A DNA stretch of 64,000 nucleotides from Gemmataceae bacterium (GCA_041694635.1 JBDNHI010000103.1:50829-114828); one strand, 5' to 3'. Positions 248 to 58,687 are shown, counted from the stretch's first letter. Numbers and translations are program-made. Notes: a model not told the origin generated them from the letters alone.

Positions 248-1621
248 ATGCAGAAATTCCTTGCTGGAATCGCTAGCCTAGGTTTGGTGGGAATTTTGGT
301 TTTAAGTGTCTGGTCACAACCCCAAGATGGAAAAGGCGGAGCAGGAAAAGGTGGCGTAGGTAAAGAGGGTGATAAAAAAGGTGGTGGCTTTGATAAAAAA
401 GGACCTCCAATGCCATTTGAAATAGGAAAGGTTTTACCCCTACACCTTTACGACATGCTTGAACTAACCCAAGATCAGAAAGCTCAGATTGCGGATCTTG
501 AAAAAGAAGTAAAATCTAAATTGACTAAGATTCTTAAAGAAGACCAAGTTAAGAAAATTGAAGCTTATAAAGATAAAGGTAAGATGGATGGAAAAGATAA
601 AGGAAAAGGAAAAGATGATGGAAAAGATGGTAAAGATAAAGATGGCACAACTGAGAAAAAAGCTGGCCAACCCAGACCCGATATGGATTCTAACCTCAAA
701 AAACCATCCCAAATTCAATGGTTTGCTTCCCTTGATCGCGGATTGATAGAAGCTCAAAAATCTGGTCTTCCTATTTTATTCCTTTCGGCTGCACCCCATT
801 GTGCTGGCGTCTCTGGAACTTGGTGACCGGGTAAATCCGAGATGGATAAGAGTTTCTTGTCTAATCCCGAAGTCATTGCTCAATCTAGAAATTTTGTCTG
901 CATTAGGCTTCTTAGCTACGAAGACAAGGAAGAAGCTGAGTTCTTGAAAAGTTTTAATGTAGGTCGTTCTGGTGATGCGGAGAATACGGTTTTTTGCATT
1001 CTTTCCTCTGATGGGAAAAACCGTTTGGTTAGGCCAGCCCGGGGGACGGGGCAGGTGTATTCTTCCGCAAAAGCAATGGCAGAATCTATGGGTAAGATTG
1101 CTCTTCAAAACCCAATAAATTCTGCTGCAACGACTAAGCTTGCGATTCCTTATGTTGCTAACTTGCGGCTTGCTCTTAATGTCGCAAGTTGTGATAAATT
1201 GCCTTTGGTAGTGGTTTTTAAAACGACAAAAAATCCAACAAATGATTTAGAAGAAAAGATCAGTAAAGTTGCTTGGTCGCCCGAATTTATTGGGAAGTTT
1301 ATCTATGTAAGCATTTCAAATAAAAAAGACTTAGAGCTACTTCAAGGCGCAGAAGATGAATCGAAAGTTTTAGTGGTTCAACCTGATAATTTTGGTTTAA
1401 AAGGTGAGGTTTTGTTTCAGACTTCTGAAGTTTCGGAATTGAAACTTGGGGCGGTTTTTAGTGAAGGTATTTTGAAGGGCCAGTGGCCTGCCCTTACCTT
1501 TTGGAATCATGTACAGCAAGGCCATCAAAAAGGAGTTTTTTGGGAAACAAAATTACCTGTTACAGATAAGCAAGAACTCAGTGCCCGTGAACGATTTCGC
1601 TCGAAAAGTAGTTCAAAATAG
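248..1621 (+). CDS. Secreted LTXXQ-motif + thioredoxin-fold protein. Its single reading frame is interrupted by one in-frame TGA (824-826), so it is either a candidate selenoprotein or a freshly inactivated gene
   Basis: Track ORFs 248-826 and 842-1621 share one frame (842-824=18) and are separated only by TGA plus 5 sense codons. There is a signal peptide (MQKFLAGIASLGLVGILVLSVWS), a G/K-rich low-complexity region, and an LTXXQ motif (LELTQDQKAQIADLEKE). A thioredoxin-fold signature follows: WFASLDRGLIEAQKSGLPILFL...TW[TGA]PGKSEMDKSFLSNPEV...NFVCIRL. Confidence 0.6.
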
Positions 1622-1643: not shown

Positions 1644-2297
1644 ATGCGTATTCTAGTGGTAGAAGATGAGCCAGATCTACTTAGCACCATTGCTAGGGCC
1701 TTGCGCGAACAAGGGTATGCGGTAGACGAAGCTTGCGATGGAAAAAATGCCTTCTTCAATGCTTTTTCAAATTCCTATGACGCCATCGTGCTTGATTTGA
1801 TGCTACCCGAAATGGGGGGCATCGAATTTATCAAAAAGGTTCGAAAATCGAAAGCAACTCCTATTCTAATTCTTAGCGCTTTAGATACGGTTGGGGATAG
1901 AGTCGAGGGGCTAAATATCGGGGCAGATGATTACTTAGTTAAACCATTTTCAATGGTGGAACTATTTGCAAGGCTTCAAGCTTTGATTCGAAGAGCAGCC
2001 GGTGTCACCGCAAATATTATAAGTGTAGGGGAGTTAACAATAGACCTTGGCACGAAGATTGCCGGGTATGCAGGCCGTAAGATAGACCTGACTCCAAAAG
2101 AATTTTCGCTGCTTGAATTAATGGTGTTAAATCGAAATAAAGTGGTGAGTCGAACCGCAATTTATGAACATATTTATGACTCCGATGATGATACTATGAG
2201 CAATTTAGTCGATGTACATATTTTTAATTTAAGAAAAAAGCTGGAAAAAGATATCATCGAAACAAGACGAGGGTTGGGATACATTATTTGTGATTAA
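1644..2297 (+). CDS. OmpR/PhoB-family response regulator
   Basis: The receiver domain is MRILVVEDEPDL...AIVLDLMLPEMGG...LILSA. The C-terminal winged helix is LTPKEFSLLELMVLNRNKVVSR...VDVHIFNLRKKL. It starts 22 nt after the upstream gene and its stop overlaps the kinase start. Confidence 0.92.
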   Translation: MRILVVEDEPDLLSTIARALREQGYAVDEACDGKNAFFNAFSNSYDAIVLDLMLPEMGGIEFIKKVRKSKATPILILSALDTVGDRVEGLNIGADDYLVKPFSMVELFARLQALIRRAAGVTANIISVGELTIDLGTKIAGYAGRKIDLTPKEFSLLELMVLNRNKVVSRTAIYEHIYDSDDDTMSNLVDVHIFNLRKKLEKDIIETRRGLGYIICD

Positions 2298-3768
2298 ATC
2301 GCTGCGCTGGAAATTAGAGTTTTTTTATGCAGGCTTACTGGCATTCCTTATTGTTTCAATAGGCTCGCTTTTGTATTTTCAGGTTTGGCACGCCGTTTAC
2401 GATGAGTTTGATCAAAGGTTAATAGCAGCAGCGTTGTATTTAGATTTAGCTTTGCGACCAATGCCCGCTGAACCAGGCAGAGTAATGGCTCCGCCACCTA
2501 GGCCAGATGGAAGCCGGCCTCCGCCCCCTAGGACCCAAGAGCAATTTTTAAAAGGAATAAAGTTGCCTGAGGAACTGAATTTATACCAACAGTCATCACC
2601 TTTGTCGATGCCTGTACCTGATCTTAAAATCTCTAAACATTACTTTTTAATTTATTCGAATCAGGGTGAATTGTTAAAGCAGGAAAACCTTCCAGAGGGT
2701 TATTTGGTTCAGGAGGTTGGAGATGAGATTTTTACAGAACGGCCGACTTTAAAAACGGTTTTCAATAATAAGCGGGAAACCTATATGCGAGGTCCAAGGA
2801 ACACCAGAATAATTGTTGGAAAATCTCTGATTTATATAAAAGAAAGATTGGGTACATTTGCTTTTCGGATTATTTTGGTAGGTTCCTTTTTCATGGCGGT
2901 TGGTATCTTTTTTTCTTTCGCTATCGCAAGCCGAATCTCTAAACCACTTGCCCAGATGTCTGCAGCAGCAGAACAAATCTCAGAAAAAAATCTGAGTACA
3001 CCTTTGGATATCACCCAGGTCAATTCCGAGCTTTCTGGCCTCGTTAAGGTGCTTAATAATTTGTTCGCCCGACTTGACGCATCCCTTAACAGACAAAAAC
3101 AGTTTACTGCGGATGCCTCTCATGAACTTCGTACACCCCTTGCGGTTATTCGTTCTATCTCGGAATTAACTTTATCTCAAACGCGCACTCCGAAAGAATA
3201 TCAAGAAGCAATTGAAATTTCGCTTAAAGCGGTACATCGGATGACTAAATTGGTAAACGGTTTGCTTGCACTTGCCAGAGTGGATTCCTACAGTGAAGAG
3301 TTTACAGTGCAAGAAATTGAATTTGATTGTCTGGTTTTAGAATCTTTTTTACTTTTAACTCCGATGGCTACAGAAAAACAAATCAGTATTACGCACGATT
3401 TAAACCCCGTTAAAATAAACGGGCATTAGGCGAGTTTGACCCAAGTTCTGGATAACCTCATTACCAACGCAATTATTTATAATAAGGTTGGCGGTGAAAT
3501 TAATCTGAAGCTTATTTATGAGAAAGGAATTGCAATTTTGGAAATAACCGATACCGGAATCGGAATTTCACAAGACCAATTAACACACCTTTTTGAACGT
3601 TTTTACAGGGTTGATAAGGCTAGATCAAGGCTAACTGGGGGCAGTGGCTTGGGCCTTTCTATTTGTAAAGCTCTTGTGGAAAAGCATCAAGGGGTGATCA
3701 AAGTAAATAGTATTATAGAAACCGGTACCACTTTTAGAATCGAATTTCCACTTCAATTAAAAGTTTAA
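2290..3768 (+). pseudogene. Sensor histidine kinase (TM-sensor-HAMP-HisKA-HATPase_c) interrupted by an in-frame TAG at 3427-3429
   Basis: ORFs 2290-3429 and 3436-3768 are in the same frame. The first part carries the H-box FTADASHELRTPLAVIRS. Right after the stop come the N-box LTQVLDNLITNAIIYN, G1 DTGIGI and G2 GGSGLGLSICK. The junction reads VKINGH*ASLTQVLDNL, which matches the usual GDxxxLxQVLxNL spacing. Confidence 0.75.
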
Positions 3769-3793: not shown

Positions 3794-4723
3794 TTAGTAT
3801 TGGCTGCCATCAATCACATTTCCATCCATACGATTAGCAAGGTTTGCGTAGGTAGTTCCTTGGATTGAATTGTTAATAGCTTTTACCGCTCCATCGCAGA
3901 AGACAAAAAGAACCACACCCGAATGACTACTGCCAAAACACCCTGTTCTTGTATCGGTAGGCCCTTTGGCCGGCAGGTTGGTAGCAGAAGCGCCAAAAAA
4001 GCTACTTCCCTTGTCTCCATTATATGCCGCACCATCTCGAGCATTGACATCACCATAAAGGGTGTTGGGAATATGTTTTTCGCCAATCATTAGGGTGTTA
4101 CTTAAACCATCAGTGATATCAGCAATTCTGTAGCCATTTCTATATCCAGTACCGCCGGTATTCCAATCGTTGGCGAGTGGAAAAACGCCATTGGTTGGAG
4201 TATTTGCCACTGTTCCGCCAGCGGTGATACCGTCCCACCAGTAATCACTGCCCGTTGTTCCCACATTCGCAGCGTAGTCTGCTAAGGCACCTGGGTACCG
4301 GGTGCTAGTAGCGGCAGAACCATCTGCCTGATCTCCATTATTAGCATCTTGCTTTGAAGCTGCTCTTCTTGCGGGGCAAAACAAACCTTTAATCGTCGTT
4401 TGCTGAACTTGGGCACTTTGATTGTAATAATTCGTACTAAAATTCCATTGGTTTCTTAATGCACCTTGCTCCAAGTAATCAAAGAGCTGAACCATCCAAG
4501 TGTAATCAGCATCTCGCCTGCTATTGGTAAAGCAGGAAAAAGTGGACTGATAGTTATGCATTGCAAGGCCTAACTGCTTTAGGTTGTTACTGCAACTCAT
4601 ACGACTGGCTGCTTCTCGGACTTTCTGCACTGCAGGAAGTAGAAGCCCGATTAATATTGCAATAATTGCAATGACTACAAGCAGTTCGATTAGAGTAAAA
4701 CCCTGTTTTTGATGGTGTTTCAT
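3794..4723 (-). CDS. DUF1559 / H-X9-DG protein with prepilin-type N-terminal cleavage-methylation domain
   Basis: The N-terminus is [51 protein letters not shown]. The C-terminal [12 protein letters not shown] is an exact H-X9-DG motif. Confidence 0.9.
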
Positions 4724-11375: not shown

Positions 11376-11448
11376 GCCCCGGTAGCTCAGTCGGTAGAGC
11401 AGCTGACTCTTAATCAGCTTGTCGTAGGTTCGATCCCTACTCGGGGCA
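11376..11448 (+). tRNA. tRNA-Lys (anticodon CUU)
   Basis: Hand-folded cloverleaf. Acceptor is gccccgg/tcggggc, D stem gctc/gagc, anticodon stem gctga/tcagc with loop ctCTTaa, and T arm gtagg-ttcgatc-cctac. Discriminator is A and CCA is not encoded. Confidence 0.9.
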
Positions 11449-17433: not shown

Positions 17434-18594
17434 TTAGCGGATAGTAAACTTGTTTCCGGGTAGTCGTTTGATCAGGCGCTTCATTTCCATACCTATCAAT
17501 TTGCCTGCAATAACAGAGGCACTTTGACTGGTTTGCCTAATGATTTCATCCATGTAAATTTCATTAACTACAAGTAAGTGCCAAATTTTGGATTCAATAT
17601 CGTCGAGTCCGGTGGGTAAAATAGCCAAGGTATTAGTTTCCGCTTTATTGGGTTTTTCTTTAGGTGCATCTGTAATTCCGGGTAAAAGCTTTTGACTAAA
17701 AGAAGGTGCCCAATCCCTTAGTTCGTCGAGTATATCATCAACAGAGCGAACTAAAATTGCCCCTTTCCGAATCAGAGCATTGGTGCCACCACTTGCGGAA
17801 GATTCAATACTACCCGGAACAGCCAAAACAGGTTTACCTTGTTCTGAAGCATGAACAGCAGAAATAAGAGCGCCACTTTTCTCGGCTGCTTCTATAATAA
17901 TAACGGCTTTGCTTAAGCCGCTGATGATACGATTTCGTGCAGGAAACATTCCAGGCAGAGGATCTTGCATCATCGGGGCTTCTACAATAAGTGCACCTGC
18001 TTGTGCCACTTCCTGCGCAAGCTTTAGATGTTCGGGTGGATAAATTTTGGATAACCCGCCCGCAAGGACTGCAATGGTTCTTCCCCCCGCTTCTAATGCT
18101 CCAAGATGAGCTTCTGCATCTATCCCACGGGCCAAGCCGCTTACAATAGTGTACCCTGCCTGAGCCAACCCCTTGGCGAATTTTCTTGCAATTCGTTTCC
18201 CATACTCGGTGCAAGCTCTGGATCCTACAATGGCAACGGCCTTAGAATCGGTGGGGAGAATCGTTCCTTTATAATAAAGCACCCGAGGCGGGTCATAAAT
18301 ATTAGCAAGCGATTCGGGGTAATCGGGCTTATCTTTAAGCAGCGCTTTCACACCGTGCAGGCGCATGTTGGAAAGTTCAATTTCCGCATCGTATTTCCTA
18401 AAAGAATCGTAAAGTTTTAGTGCGATATTATGGCCAAGATGAGGCACGCTTGCTAAGGCTTCAGGCTTAGCAAGCAAGATGGCCTCGGGTGTTTTAAACT
18501 TATCAACGAGTGCCTGAGTCAGCCTTGGTCCAAGGCCGGGAACTAGATTTAAAAGTAACCAAGGCTTTAATTCTTCGTCTGATGGTTCATACAT
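17434..18594 (-). CDS. dprA: DNA-processing protein DprA
   Basis: VAIVGSRACTEYGKRIARKFAKGLAQAGYTIVSGLARGIDAEAH and GSIESSASGGTNALIRKGA. It lies 15 nt downstream of aroB on the same strand. Confidence 0.9.
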   Translation of the reverse strand: MYEPSDEELKPWLLLNLVPGLGPRLTQALVDKFKTPEAILLAKPEALASVPHLGHNIALKLYDSFRKYDAEIELSNMRLHGVKALLKDKPDYPESLANIYDPPRVLYYKGTILPTDSKAVAIVGSRACTEYGKRIARKFAKGLAQAGYTIVSGLARGIDAEAHLGALEAGGRTIAVLAGGLSKIYPPEHLKLAQEVAQAGALIVEAPMMQDPLPGMFPARNRIISGLSKAVIIIEAAEKSGALISAVHASEQGKPVLAVPGSIESSASGGTNALIRKGAILVRSVDDILDELRDWAPSFSQKLLPGITDAPKEKPNKAETNTLAILPTGLDDIESKIWHLLVVNEIYMDEIIRQTSQSASVIAGKLIGMEMKRLIKRLPGNKFTIR

Positions 18595-18609
18595 GGGCGT
18601 TGGAACTAC

Positions 18610-19722
18610 TCAGGTTTGGGGTGACAAAACTCCTTTAACATCATCTTCCGAGACATCATCAAAAAGAGAAACCTCGCCCAGTTTGGTGGGTAGAATGAAT
18701 CTCAGTTTGCCATTCACCGACTTCTTATCATTTCGCATCACATCGATCAAAGCTTTAGAAGAAAGTAAAGGAGGCTTCGTTGGTAGCTTAAATACATTGA
18801 GTAAATCCACCAATCTACGATCAAGATTTGCATCAATCATACCTCGCTTAAGAGCAAGTTTATTAGCACAAACCATGCCTGCAGCCACTGCTTCGCCATG
18901 CAACCATGTGCCGTAACCGCCTATGGTTTCAAAAGCATGAGCAAAAGTATGGCCAAAATTTAATACAGCCCTCAACCCTGTTTCTTCCCTCTCATCTTGT
19001 GAAACAACGAAAGCTTTCAGCTCGCAAGATCGCTTGATAATTTGCCTGAGGGTATGGGGTTGCCTGTCGAGAATAGCTTGGGCATTGGTTTCTAGGAAAG
19101 AAAAGAACTCGGGGTCAAGGATCATGCCATACTTTACAATCTCAGCAAGTCCGCTGTGAAATTCACGCTCAGGAAGGGTATTTAACATGTTGATATCGAT
19201 AGCAACTCCAGAGGGTTGATGAAATGCGCCTATCAGGTTTTTGCCTTTTGGGTGATTGATGCCAACTTTTCCACCAACAGAACTATCCACCATGGAAAGC
19301 AAGGTGGTAGGTATCATAAAAAGTGGAATTCCACGATTAAAAGTTGCAGCGACAAACCCTGCTAGGTCTCCCACCACACCGCCTCCCATAGCAACCACCA
19401 TGGCTTTACGGTCGGCCCGAACTTTTACTAGTTCATCATAAAGCTTGGCAGTGGATTCGAGGCATTTCTGATTTTCACCAGAAGGCAAAACCACTTTCGT
19501 TATTATTCTATTTGAATCTTGCAGCCCTTTAATAAGTTCAGAGGCAGCAGGTTCAACCTTTTGGTCACAAACGACAAAAAGAGAATTGGCGTTTGATATC
19601 GCCAAATTTAGAGAGGAAATATGAGGGAGAAAACCTTCGCCTATAATAATGTCATAACTTCTTGGGCCCAGTTCAACACGGACTTTGTCAGGTTGTTGGT
19701 TACTATTTGATTTCAAGTTCAT
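18610..19722 (-). CDS. aroB: 3-dehydroquinate synthase
   Basis: GGGVVGDLAGFVAATFNRGIPLFMIPTTLLSMVDSSVGGKVGINHPKGKNLIGAFHQP and HGEAVAAGM. ATG 19722 (MNLKSNS...) is preferred over the upstream alternative start at 19821. Confidence 0.9.
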   Translation of the reverse strand: MNLKSNSNQQPDKVRVELGPRSYDIIIGEGFLPHISSLNLAISNANSLFVVCDQKVEPAASELIKGLQDSNRIITKVVLPSGENQKCLESTAKLYDELVKVRADRKAMVVAMGGGVVGDLAGFVAATFNRGIPLFMIPTTLLSMVDSSVGGKVGINHPKGKNLIGAFHQPSGVAIDINMLNTLPEREFHSGLAEIVKYGMILDPEFFSFLETNAQAILDRQPHTLRQIIKRSCELKAFVVSQDEREETGLRAVLNFGHTFAHAFETIGGYGTWLHGEAVAAGMVCANKLALKRGMIDANLDRRLVDLLNVFKLPTKPPLLSSKALIDVMRNDKKSVNGKLRFILPTKLGEVSLFDDVSEDDVKGVLSPQT

Positions 19723-19888
19723 CTCACCTTGAGAAGCGCAAACGATTCTATTTAGCCACTGTGCCAAACGGATGGCACTCAAAGCTTTATTATAATTTAC
19801 AAATTTGAGTAAACACAACAACTTATTTAAACTCTGATAAGCAGATTCAAGCTAGAATAAGGGAATAAACTTTTTCCTAGGTGCCACT

Positions 19889-33074: not shown

Positions 33075-33145
33075 TTACCCGGCTAGGACTCGAACCTAGA
33101 CAAAGAAAACCAAAATTTCTTGTGCTACCATTACACTACCGGGTA
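33075..33145 (-). tRNA. tRNA-Gln (anticodon UUG)
   Basis: Hand-folded on the minus strand. Acceptor is tacccgg/ccgggta (U1-A72), anticodon stem agaaa/tttct with loop ttTTGgt, and T arm ctagg-ttcgagt-cctag. Discriminator is A. Confidence 0.85.
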
Positions 33146-50083: not shown

Positions 50084-51151
50084 ATGAAAAAGTTAATTCT
50101 GATTATTTGTATTCTTTTGGCCCCTCTTGCGATGATACCCCTTAGCGATGCCAATGGACCAACGGACGCCATTCCCCACCCTCGTGGTTATGTTTGCTTT
50201 AAAACAAACACAGCACCAAAAATTGATGGAAAGCTTGATGACCCGGCTTGGAAGGCTGCACCTTGGAGCCAAGATTTTGTCGATATCGAAGGTAATTCCA
50301 AACCTTTGCCTACGCATCGCACCCGAATGAAAATGCTTTGGGATGACAAAGGACTTTATATCGCTTCCGAAATCCAAGAACCACACATCTGGGCCACTCT
50401 CACAGAACACGATTCCGTTATTTTCCACGATCCAGATTTCGAAGTCTTTATCGACCCTGATGGCGACAATCATCTTTATGCCGAACTAGAATTAAACGCC
50501 CTTAATACCACCTGGGATTTATTGCTCTCTAAACCTTATAAAGATGGGGGCAGGGCCCTTAATGGCTGGGAAGCCATCGGGCTTAAAGCTGCGGTTCATA
50601 TCAATGGCACAATCAATAACCCAAACGACACCGATACCCGTTGGACTGTGGAAATATTTTGGCCTTGGGTTGGGCTCAAGGAACTTTCTCAACAACCCAT
50701 CCCACCAAAGGATGGCAACCGATGGCGCATTAATTTCTCTCGGGTCGAGTGGGACACCACTATTGAGCAAGGCCGGTATATCAAAGTCAAAGGTAAACCC
50801 GAATACAACTGGGTCTGGTCTCCTCAAGGCGTTATCGATATGCACCGGCCCGAGCGCTGGGGATACTTACAATTTAGCACTCAAACTGAGGGTAATGTTG
50901 ATTACAAGCCCGACCCTGAACAAGGGGTGAAAGATTTATTACACGAAGTCTATTACTCGCAGCGCAACTATCACAAGAAGTTTGGCAAGTTCACTCAAAA
51001 TTTCGCCGACTTACAACTTAATAAAAACAATAATGGCATACCAAATATCAGTCTTACGCCATATGGTTTTGAAGCGATCATTGCCCTTCGTGAAAATTCT
51101 TTGCACAAGCAATGGGGCATCAACAGCGAGAGTTTTTTGTGGAGCAAGTAA
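50084..51151 (+). CDS. Secreted carbohydrate-binding family 9-like (DOMON-like) protein
   Basis: IDGKLDDPAWKAAPWSQDFVDIEG...DPDFEVFIDPDGDNHLYAELELNALNTTWDLLL...RWRINFSRVEW. This pattern is typical of CBM9-like domains. Confidence 0.7.
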   Translation: MKKLILIICILLAPLAMIPLSDANGPTDAIPHPRGYVCFKTNTAPKIDGKLDDPAWKAAPWSQDFVDIEGNSKPLPTHRTRMKMLWDDKGLYIASEIQEPHIWATLTEHDSVIFHDPDFEVFIDPDGDNHLYAELELNALNTTWDLLLSKPYKDGGRALNGWEAIGLKAAVHINGTINNPNDTDTRWTVEIFWPWVGLKELSQQPIPPKDGNRWRINFSRVEWDTTIEQGRYIKVKGKPEYNWVWSPQGVIDMHRPERWGYLQFSTQTEGNVDYKPDPEQGVKDLLHEVYYSQRNYHKKFGKFTQNFADLQLNKNNNGIPNISLTPYGFEAIIALRENSLHKQWGINSESFLWSK

Positions 51152-51212
51152 CGAGTTGTTTTGAAAAAAGATTGATTGTGAAATTCTTGAAATTGTTGTG
51201 GCATTGAGAATT

Positions 51213-51247: not shown

Positions 51248-51250
51248 TAG

Positions 51251-51641
51251 TGGAGGCGCGGGGAATTGAACCCCGGTCCCGAAGCCCTTCCATACCGGCG
51301 TCTACGTGCGTAGCAAATCGATTCAGCAGTCTTTCTCTGCTATGTTCACTTTAATGGATTCGATGAGCAAAGCCACTTCAAGCTAACCAAGTGTGAAATC
51401 TTGCAGGTGTCTCCCTCGGTATCAGCCACTTGCGTGACTTCCGACCCCCGCGATCCAGATTTAACTAGCGCGCTAAAACCTCTCTGGCTAAGCTTCTAGA
51501 CACGCGACCGCCATATTATTAGGCAGCCATTGAGAACTGCGGTTCTGCAGTTAAGTTTGATCAGATATTTACGTGGCCATCTGATCACCCACGGCACGCG
51601 ACCTGTATTTCCGTAAGCCCGGTCGAAACCGGATCGCCCCC
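51251..51641 (-). ncRNA. ssrA: tmRNA (transfer-messenger RNA)
   Basis: The minus-strand 5' end is GGGGGCGAUCCGGUUUCGACCGGG. The 3' end is GGACCGGGGUUCAAUUCCCCGCGCCUCCA, i.e. T-arm plus acceptor. The acceptor helix contains the G3:U wobble required for Ala charging. An internal tag frame reads GCA GAA CCG CAG UUC UCA AUG GCU GCC UAA UAA. Confidence 0.92.
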
Positions 51642-57640: not shown

Positions 57641-58687
57641 TTACTTTTCTGCTTTAAGTAACATTTCTTTCACTTGAACCTTAGCACCATTAAGGCGCTT
57701 GCTTTGATGTGCGGCTTCCATAAAAGCAAAAATTTCGAGAGTTTCCTCTGCACTTACTGGAACCGGGGCGCCTTTAAAAAACTTCGCCATCTCTATTGCT
57801 ATACCTTCGTAGCCCATGTATTTATCGTTTGTAGGAACCAACCCTTTAACCGGTACACCGTGCCCGTAGACTCCAGAAACGGAAACTCCTTTTTCGCCAA
57901 AAACAGTGGCACTGTATTTAATCGCCCCTGTTTTAATTCCACGGTAAGTTCCTATTCTGCCATCTGACCAAGTACCGGTTACCGATTCCGTAATTGGAGT
58001 CGAAGTGCAAGAAACTGCAACACAACCCTTACCCATAATTGCATAAAGTGCTTCAATGCTATGAAGTGCGTGCCAGTAAAGCTCTGCGTGATGAGAAATA
58101 GTAGGGCAACCGCCATAAATATCACAGCCCAAAACAGAACCAACTTCAGGATGATTTTTCATTCCAATAAAACCTGGGCTGAATCGATGTTGGGAACTTG
58201 TCCAGCAGGGGGTTTTGGTTTGTTCTGCTAAACGAAGTATTGCTACAGCATCCGAAAATGAAGCTGCAAGAGGTCGACCGATATAAACGCGTTTGCCAGC
58301 TTTCAACACTGCACTTGCTTGTTGCAAATGCTTGCGACCATCAAGGCTCATCACCATCACCACATCACAACTCGCAAGCAAATCTTCTATCGAATCAACC
58401 ATTTTAACATCATACTTCAAGAGTTGTTCTTTCCATTTAGGTAGGCTAGAAACACTTTCGGGTATGTCACTGCTTGCTTTATCGGGAAAAGCAGCGACTA
58501 CTTTTAAGCCGGCTAAATTTCCCATTGCATTGGGATCATTAAATAATTGCGTGTATGCAACCGCTTGGTAATTGTCGATACCCAGAACCCCAACACGAAC
58601 AACTTTGGGTACTTGTGCCCAAAGAGTCGCACAGGGAATTGCAAGAAGAACTAAGGAAAGAAATCGCGTGAGAAAAAACTGGATCAT
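57641..58687 (-). CDS. Secreted Gfo/Idh/MocA-family oxidoreductase
   Basis: A signal peptide is followed by the Rossmann start VRVGVLGIDNYQAVAY. The overall length and pattern fit the family. Confidence 0.78.
   Translation of the reverse strand: MIQFFLTRFLSLVLLAIPCATLWAQVPKVVRVGVLGIDNYQAVAYTQLFNDPNAMGNLAGLKVVAAFPDKASSDIPESVSSLPKWKEQLLKYDVKMVDSIEDLLASCDVVMVMSLDGRKHLQQASAVLKAGKRVYIGRPLAASFSDAVAILRLAEQTKTPCWTSSQHRFSPGFIGMKNHPEVGSVLGCDIYGGCPTISHHAELYWHALHSIEALYAIMGKGCVAVSCTSTPITESVTGTWSDGRIGTYRGIKTGAIKYSATVFGEKGVSVSGVYGHGVPVKGLVPTNDKYMGYEGIAIEMAKFFKGAPVPVSAEETLEIFAFMEAAHQSKRLNGAKVQVKEMLLKAEK

Follow-up and report, generated by a model that had tools for sequence, protein, structure and literature searches.

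Organization of the locus

The window, by which we mean the whole 64,000-nucleotide stretch of Gemmataceae DNA analysed here, contains at 248-1621 two open reading frames in one frame that are currently annotated as genes for proteins of 192 and 259 residues, and all annotation pipelines call them as two. The first (248-826) stops at a TGA at 824-826, the frame then stays open to a stop at 1619-1621, and between the TGA and the ATG at 842 lie only the five sense codons CCG GGT AAA TCC GAG (PGKSE). This arrangement was reported in a preliminary description of the sequence, along with the peptide expected from reading through the junction; we recovered the same coordinates, and the peptide agrees exactly with the DNA. 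The two annotated genes are almost certainly one, with the features listed here, all on the + strand.

248..1621 (+): proposed single selenoprotein gene of 457 codons including UGA-193, followed by a TAG stop
248..316 (+): predicted Sec-type signal peptide (MQKFLAGIASLGLVGILVLSVWS), its n-region and hydrophobic core read from the sequence; homologues end the region in AxA-Q-PP
410..580 (+): hairpin of helices carrying a pair of LTxxQ-type motifs (CpxP/Spy-like), then a Lys/Gly/Asp-rich low-complexity linker (sub-threshold Pfam match, hhalign, AF2 helices in homologue P0017)
713..1141 (+): catalytic thioredoxin-fold ('a') domain of DsbD-gamma/Thioredoxin_7 type spanning the TGA, with beta-1 upstream and helix 1 downstream (AF2, Foldseek, weak PF13899 match)
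800..802 (+): TGT codon of Cys185, candidate resolving residue, invariant in 57 sequences and in the distant P0245, L062 and L063
824..826 (+): UGA-193, which would encode selenocysteine at the helix 1 N-cap; TGA in 42/57 sequences, TGY in 15/57, TAA or TAG in none
827..841 (+): PGKSE codons between the TGA and the first ATG, translated; P, G and K invariant with four, four and two synonymous codons
843..863 (+): bacterial SECIS-like hairpin UGGAUAAGA-GUU-UCUUGUCUA, with 9 bp, a GUU loop, a UGA-loop spacing of 25 nt and -7.7 kcal/mol
1142..1618 (+): a further thioredoxin fold, lacking Cys (b/b'-like), and C-terminal helices (AF2 of the window sequence, pLDDT 90.1)
1644..2297 (+): OmpR-family response regulator, immediately downstream (Pfam Response_reg and Trans_reg_C)
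2290..3768 (+): HAMP/HisKA/HATPase_c histidine kinase, broken by a TAG at 3427-3429 in the NCBI MAG (Pfam and assembly comparison)

Same-frame adjacency carries little weight by itself, since four further pairs of same-frame ORFs joined by a TGA are present in the window, and the case for a single gene therefore rests on cross-species comparison. Both long pairs were rejected as read-through genes: AroB/DprA consists of two complete, unrelated genes with the same 15-nt gap before the ATG, and D-Glu cyclase/GDSL lipase likewise of two complete, unrelated, ordinary genes. The two short pairs lie at 50496-51164 and 57662-58231.

Conservation of the in-frame UGA codon

An orthologue scan of one genome per GTDB species, using the core alignment as query, yielded 56 loci, mostly in Planctomycetota MAGs (labelled Gemmataceae, Fimbriiglobus and Pirellula) with some in Armatimonadota. 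Many of the MAGs carrying the family derive from lake and river samples. With the window included (n = 57), the codon corresponding to 824-826 is TGA in 42 sequences, TGT in eight and TGC in seven. The TGA is thus kept in 41 other species-level genomes, down to ~30% protein identity, and is found in both Planctomycetota and Armatimonadota, with Cys codons in a sister clade; this is the comparison of orthologues that the preliminary description had proposed as a check, and its outcome is the one expected of a selenocysteine codon. TGA also occupies the column in L062, L063 and L064. Sec forms outnumber Cys forms by 41 to 15 species-level loci, and since the Cys forms make up a single clade in a midpoint-rooted NJ tree, one switch between Sec and Cys suffices to explain the distribution.

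Immediately past the TGA, every TGA form encodes Pro-Gly-Lys with codons that cover the complete CCN and GGN sets and both AAR triplets; positions 1 and 2 are invariant and third positions vary, and the flanks on both sides show coding-type conservation. These codons offer no possible start, so the spacer can be translated only by read-through of the UGA. Full-length Cys homologues (P0015, P0017, P0027 and others) cross the corresponding junction. A protein search returned 11 full-length homologues, ten of which read ...PHCAGVSGMW-C-PGK... and one of which (P0014) has Leu at the column. We do not regard the latter as a genuine Leu form, as its codon is TTA with the hairpin described below intact, indicating a recent derivative or an error; similarly, an apparent start at the Sec column in P0128 results from an indel at a homopolymer in a long-read contig of 1x depth.

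The same search found about 100 homologues of 255-270 aa that cover the C-terminal ORF only and start at a Met six codons past the TGA, and three N-terminal-only database entries that stop exactly at ...GVSG[TI]W. The NCBI annotation of one member, P0088, is a 265-aa hypothetical protein. When 1.84 billion cluster representatives were searched with a profile, 295 relatives (50%-identity cluster representatives) were identified at E <= 1e-30. Of the best 150, 109 begin at the Met that follows the TGA, and only three reach across the Sec/Cys column. By these proportions among the best 150, the family is stored in public databases almost wholly as truncated fragments, with the Sec form dominant.

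A hairpin specific to the TGA forms

A stem begins 17 nt past the UGA (family core stem 844-862), in a region where the TGA forms alone have the nucleotide block AUGGACAGGAGUUUCCUGUCC in common. RNAalifold predicts for the TGA forms a 7-bp stem with an AGUUU loop (or, with the A-U pair closed, 8 bp and a GUU loop) and no structure for the Cys forms. Under this structure 97.1% of the alignment cells are paired in the TGA forms versus 59.2% in the Cys forms, in which one stem pair is never formed, and sliding the partner column leaves 23-59% pairing in the TGA forms. Compensatory changes are seen at two pairs, one being G-C in 26 sequences and A-U in 11 (the window among the latter), and the other changing from C-G to U-A in L062; the covariation amounts to these two pairs and few independent events, and measures based on pairs or types are no different from shuffles. 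Hairpin conservation overlaps in part with that of the amino acids MDRSFLS, and there is codon constraint beyond the amino acid in the TGA forms only, with Ser encoded by AGT in 39/39 and Phe by TTC in 37/37.

In the published bSECIS model the stem has 4-16 bp and the loop 3-9 nt with a G in its first two positions, at 16-37 nt from the UGA and with an MFE <= -7.5 kcal/mol (PMC13188914 Fig. 2). Counting ungapped hairpins only, 36 of the 42 TGA forms, including the window, fall within this model and none of the 15 Cys forms does; among the six remaining TGA forms, L046 and L047 retain the stem with one mismatch when inspected by eye. The window hairpin is borderline at -7.7 kcal/mol, and single-sequence folding of the 86-nt region 815-900 is no better than shuffles (z = 0.11), so that the signal is a comparative one. 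Rfam at gathering thresholds detects a tmRNA and two tRNAs and nothing else. The search for a downstream hairpin suggested in the preliminary description thus ends in a stem that shows compensatory changes, is confined to the TGA forms and fits the published model.

Domain structure and active site

The full-length protein is predicted to be exported, as judged from its N-terminal residues. In the N-terminal helical segment Pfam LTXXQ (PF07813) matches six of seven homologous segments below threshold (best E 5.5e-4), the window's segment being the one without a match, and hhalign aligns the segment to Spy with a probability of 69% over 21 columns. This module is missing from the Armatimonadota members, from a clade that groups with them, and from the Cys forms of the GTDB loci.

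An AF2 model of the Cys-form homologue P0017, built from a 110-row alignment, has a mean pLDDT of 82.7 and exceeds 90 across most of the conserved core. In this model beta-1 (172-176) is followed by a loop containing Cys181, and Cys189, which corresponds to the Sec column, lies directly before the helix at 190-200. The model thereby puts the column at the helix 1 N-cap and in the place of the usual thioredoxin nucleophile, to which the preliminary description had assigned the UGA. The best single-domain Foldseek matches (1uc7, 2fwg, 2ju5, 3ira and 3f9u with TMt 0.56-0.66, 1sen and 9i3u with TMt about 0.6, all at probability 1.0) are to DsbD-gamma, DsbH, ERp19, AGR2 and other Thioredoxin_7-type domains. 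The assignment to a Thioredoxin_7/DsbD-gamma type, made previously from the sequence, accordingly holds at the level of structure and not at that of the Pfam score, as Thioredoxin_7 (PF13899) reaches 14.2 bits (E 0.049) on the window protein, below the gathering cut-off of 27 bits. Homologue P0042 carries a precomputed PF13899 match, and a PDB sequence search with the protein found no relative.

BLASTP against E. coli DsbD-gamma (an approximate sequence) places W-[U] on W-C and Lys on the second Cys, and proceeds from the Trp without gaps over the next ~48 residues, reproducing the gapless alignment to a thioredoxin-like consensus noted earlier. Two further observations of the preliminary description, a Lys at the second-Cys position and a Cys eight residues upstream of the UGA within an insertion, extend to the whole family: no CxxC dyad is present, the column reading U/C-P-G-K with the Lys invariant, and Cys185, eight residues upstream of UGA-193 and within an 8-residue insertion relative to DsbD-gamma, is conserved in every sequence seen. 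The active site is therefore C-x7-U-P-G-K and not CxxC, and Cys185 is the likely partner of Sec193 in a selenenylsulfide.

For the C-terminal domain of the window protein the top Foldseek match is the PDI b' domain 2djk, followed by AGR3/AGR2 and thioredoxins, and the AF2 model has no Cys at the active-site position. Over the whole length the best matches are PDI, ERp44 and Mpd1p with a TMq of about 0.19 and an rmsd of about 17 Å, a likeness that covers domain order and not arrangement.

Gene neighbourhood

Downstream of the gene, the OmpR-type response regulator and HAMP kinase are found at about 16 Sec loci and are a conserved neighbour in the window's major clade only. At L013, L014, L019, L025, L062 and L064 the next gene downstream of the proposed selenoprotein gene is one of the animal-haem-peroxidase family, which in L013, L019 and L025 separates the selenoprotein gene from the two-component genes. 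These are the only recurrent neighbours. Two seemingly family-wide neighbour clusters were set aside as probable antisense shadow ORFs, since both map to the opposite strand with an offset of approximately zero.

Decoding of the UGA codon

Taken together, the conserved TGA/Cys column, the hairpin restricted to TGA forms, the agreement of independent assemblies and the modelled nucleophile position bear out the UGA as a candidate selenocysteine codon, and we put at roughly 0.88 the probability that 248-1621 is a single gene whose product is an exported thioredoxin-fold protein containing selenocysteine. Decoding would proceed as follows. When the ribosome arrives at UGA-193, the hairpin at 843-863, whose apical loop begins with G-U, would recruit a SelB-type factor bearing Sec-tRNA(Sec), selenocysteine would be inserted, and translation would run on to 1621. 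The predicted product is a 457-residue precursor with a signal peptide, an LTXXQ-type helical hairpin, a low-complexity linker, a catalytic thioredoxin-fold domain and a redox-inactive PDI-b'-like domain. Sec193 at the N-terminus of helix 1 would take the place of the CxxC nucleophile, with the invariant Lys in place of the second Cys, and would pair as a selenenylsulfide with the Cys of the family-specific loop insertion eight residues upstream.

The comparison shows conservation of the UGA, translation across it, the Sec/Cys pair, and the hairpin with its co-occurrence with TGA, and the models show the fold; that the residue at position 193 is selenocysteine and not another is what we infer. 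Because the sequences establish that the UGA is translated and not which residue enters, it could be argued that a near-cognate tRNA inserts Trp, Cys or Arg, the hairpin being a generic stimulator of read-through and not a SelB-binding SECIS. The searches for Sec-insertion machinery are compatible with such a reading: ARAGORN found no tRNA-Sec in the window or the 56 loci, NCBIfam found no selA, selB or selD among ten window ORFs of SelA/B/D size, and tblastn with approximate E. coli SelA/B/D sequences had no match in 644 kb. However, sel genes usually lie elsewhere, so their absence from the window and the 644 kb is uninformative, and complete selA/B/C/D sets, and with them Sec decoding, are reported for Gemmata obscuriglobus, the sets also for Isosphaera pallida (PMC4807772, Table S8). 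Moreover, the sister clade consistently has Cys at this column, which lies at the thioredoxin nucleophile, so that the two make a classic Sec/Cys pair, and the hairpin agrees with the SelB-type model in its G-U loop, spacing and size. We consider insertion of a standard amino acid improbable.

Still less probable is that the UGA is a true stop and that the ORF starting at ATG 842 is made separately by translational coupling, giving two polypeptides. Apart from the two-gene calls of the annotation pipelines, this view draws on the codon at +6 after the TGA, which is Met in each of the 42 TGA forms from the genome set and Ile in every Cys form. However, L063 has CTG (Leu) at +6 with the hairpin intact and the stem G kept; a second gene would find no ATG there to begin at, so no restart codon is needed, and we rejected the Met as one. 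The preference for Met or Leu is accounted for by the G of this codon, which is the first paired base of the stem. In addition, the Pro-Gly-Lys spacer evolves as coding sequence without a possible start codon, one thioredoxin fold is modelled as crossing the junction, and the predicted signal peptide belongs to the upstream piece only, which would leave the two halves in different compartments.

The earlier caveat that the TGA might be a mutated Cys codon or a base-call error, making this a pseudogene or an artefact, does not hold. A single base change from TGT or TGC would be enough, and the same MAG does have a sporadic nonsense codon in the adjoining kinase gene, but the TGA context is identical in four independent assemblies, namely the NCBI MAG (GCA_041688315.1, contig JBDNII010000054.1), a JGI metagenome contig and two Logan SRA assemblies, and purifying selection is evident on both sides of the TGA, which the 41 other genomes share. 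In contrast, the kinase TAG at 3427-3429 is private to the NCBI MAG, the JGI and Logan assemblies having AAG; it shows the pattern expected of a sporadic nonsense change and serves as an internal control for the TGA at 824-826. With these data the pseudogene or error reading is refuted and retains almost no probability.

A genome-wide reassignment of UGA (code 4 or 25-like) has nothing in its favour except the in-frame UGA itself and is refuted to the same degree, given that the 43 long ORFs of the window end in TAA (26), UGA (9) or TAG (8), that the standard code gives 85% coding density, and that no other gene within the 64 kb requires UGA read-through.

Relation to known selenoproteins

Thioredoxin-fold selenoproteins with UxxC or CxxU motifs include Sec-thioredoxin (PF00085), thiol:disulfide interchange protein (PF13098), and DsbG-like and DsbA-like proteins (PMC13188914 Table 1). 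The family described here resembles them in having Sec for the nucleophilic Cys at the helix 1 N-cap, a bSECIS hairpin directly downstream inside the coding sequence, and Cys homologues, and several of the known proteins are likewise predicted to be periplasmic; it differs in its C-x7-U-P-G-K site without a CxxC-type dyad, its two-domain a-b core, the excess of Sec over Cys forms, and the absence of an HMM match to those families. The Trx7/PDZ (seleno)protein NF041199 is also a known selenoprotein family on a Thioredoxin_7-type domain, but has a CxxU motif and a PDZ partner domain; it was in the library searched, where it matched the PDZ part of another window protein and gave no match to the selenoprotein.

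DsbD-gamma, Thioredoxin_7 and DsbH domains provide the best single-domain structural matches, with an ungapped local alignment W-C...SDPQV, but DsbD-gamma contains a CxxC and is attached to a membrane domain for electron transfer, whereas the window family has Sec, no second Cys and an 8-residue insertion with the partner Cys, in what is predicted to be a soluble exported protein. The succession of a catalytic and a non-catalytic thioredoxin domain, and a presumed single-nucleophile chemistry, recall in the models the a-b arrangement of PDI-family members (ERp44 with CRFS, AGR2/AGR3 with CxxS), which are eukaryotic ER proteins with no sequence relationship to the family. The predicted export, the N-terminal helical hairpin with two LTxxQ motifs and, in the window's clade, the adjacent OmpR regulator and HAMP kinase are reminiscent of CpxP/Spy/ZraP, periplasmic LTXXQ proteins whose genes adjoin those of their two-component systems. 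The LTXXQ match stays below threshold, however, the module here is joined to a Sec-thioredoxin core, and a functional link would be hypothetical.

A search of NCBIfam with the full-length protein (U replaced by C) returned no family at E <= 1. Of the NCBIfam selenoprotein families, which include NF041199, NF041374 (GOS_B), NF045500 (GOS_C), NF041383 (VPGUxxT) and NF047660 (HUIPC), at least NF041199 was in the library searched. None of the 119 families and subfamilies in a 2026 review has a C-x7-U-P-G-K motif or an a-b' architecture, BSepDB re-searches reported families only, and a literal search for the motif strings found no occurrence in a searchable literature of 8 million papers. The family belongs to no catalogued selenoprotein family that we found, and is a new family working like known thioredoxin-fold selenoproteins with a coding-region bSECIS.

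Implications

We regard the family as of moderate interest and not as a new principle; its unusual attributes are the C-x7-U-P-G-K site, the a-b' core, the predominance of Sec, and a possible signalling or peroxidase context. The protein would be a periplasmic thiol/selenol oxidoreductase whose partner may be held by the b'-like domain, and in the window's clade it probably takes part in envelope oxidative-stress handling together with the adjacent OmpR/HAMP two-component system; a sister clade has a haem peroxidase gene interposed between the two. A more specific proposal, which we think unlikely, is that it is a selenium-dependent periplasmic redox sensor or accessory that reports envelope oxidant load (e.g. 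products of the neighbouring haem peroxidase) to the OmpR/HAMP system through its CpxP/Spy-like module, with Sec possibly being the ancestral and dominant state and Cys a single later reversion. If the sensor proposal were true, this would be a selenoprotein serving as a signalling accessory and not as a housekeeping oxidoreductase.

The family, with its 295 representatives, makes a large addition to the prokaryotic selenoproteome from hardly represented Gemmataceae-type Planctomycetota and Armatimonadota MAGs, and its conserved hairpin provides a SECIS example for these two phyla. It also exposes a systematic annotation error, as nearly all entries are C-terminal fragments without the signal peptide and active site. 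The C-x7-U-P-G-K site departs from the UxxC/CxxU rule by which redox selenoproteins are recognised, and the predominance of Sec over Cys is the opposite of the usual situation. Finally, its association with two-component and haem peroxidase genes offers testable hypotheses on the role of selenium in envelope redox biology.

A same-frame TGA as a negative control

On the minus strand of the window (17434-19821), the aroB gene for 3-dehydroquinate synthase ends in TGA and the ATG of dprA lies 15 nt further on in the same frame. This is the same arrangement as that of the selenoprotein ORF pair, yet aroB and dprA are two complete, unrelated genes, and the pair is a useful negative control for the same-frame TGA layout.

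Apparent variants at the Sec column

At the alignment column of UGA-193 (the Sec column), the homologous protein P0014 (locus L061, 4442-5701; JGI 3300076763) has TTA (Leu), a single base away from TGA, and the SECIS-type hairpin of this locus is completely intact. The TTA is either a very recent TGA to TTA change or an assembly variant, and P0014, with Leu at this position, is probably inactive. At locus L064 (559-575; protein P0128, ENA ERZ25072999) there is a GGG to GG homopolymer deletion immediately 3′ of the TGA, and the start of P0128 is therefore called at a GTG overlapping TGG-TGA. We rejected this start as a true variant, as it is an artefact of the homopolymer deletion in a 1x long-read contig.

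Family variation and paralogues

The N-terminal extension of the family is variable and contains calcium-binding EF-hand domains (PF13405, PF13499, PF00036) in P0114, P0116, P0117, and P0062, located either before the LTxxQ module or in place of it. A single genome (JBAXUS01, MAG ELA667) contains two TGA-form paralogues, at loci L029 and L048; in the tree, L048 sits within the second major clade, and L029 is too truncated for placement. Four contigs with the Gemmataceae-type gene (L001, L008, L024, L032) bear the labels 'Candidatus Kuenenia' or 'Alcaligenaceae', probably reflecting mislabelled MAG taxonomy or mis-binning.

RNA genes

The window contains a tmRNA gene, with the predicted tag peptide AEPQFSMAA, and two tRNA genes:

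51248-51641, minus strand, tmRNA (Rfam, 146.5 bits)
11376-11448, tRNA-Lys(ctt)
33075-33145, tRNA-Gln(ttg)

In nine of the 11 closest relatives (L001-L006, L009-L011) the selenoprotein gene is preceded by a tRNA-Arg(tct) gene, ~700 nt before the Sec column; the equivalent position in the source contig would be at the window start or just to the left of it.

Downstream genes

In this MAG the histidine kinase gene (2290-3768) contains a TAG codon at 3427-3429, which separates a HAMP+HisKA piece (379 aa) from a HATPase_c piece (110 aa). Assemblies of this population from JGI and Logan read AAG at this codon and encode a whole kinase of 492 aa; the TAG is either a nonsense change specific to the strain or a mistake in assembly. 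The kinase is followed by:

3794-4723, minus strand, protein with a prepilin-type N-terminal methylation motif and DUF1559 (SBP_bac_10)

Proteins of this type are common in Planctomycetota, and this one adjoins the kinase in eight related loci with 76–79% identity (37% in L015).

In one Gemmataceae subclade, a gene of the animal haem peroxidase family (PF03098) lies immediately 3′ of the selenoprotein gene:

L013, 8310-8828, PF03098 peroxidase gene
L014, 2516-3730, PF03098 peroxidase gene
L019, 7126-8268, PF03098 peroxidase gene
L025, 7225-8403, PF03098 peroxidase gene
L062, 2580-3762, PF03098 peroxidase gene
L064, 1408-2553, PF03098 peroxidase gene

In L013, L019, and L025 the peroxidase gene is followed by the response regulator and histidine kinase pair, and the selenoprotein, peroxidase, and two-gene regulator set may form a functional module.
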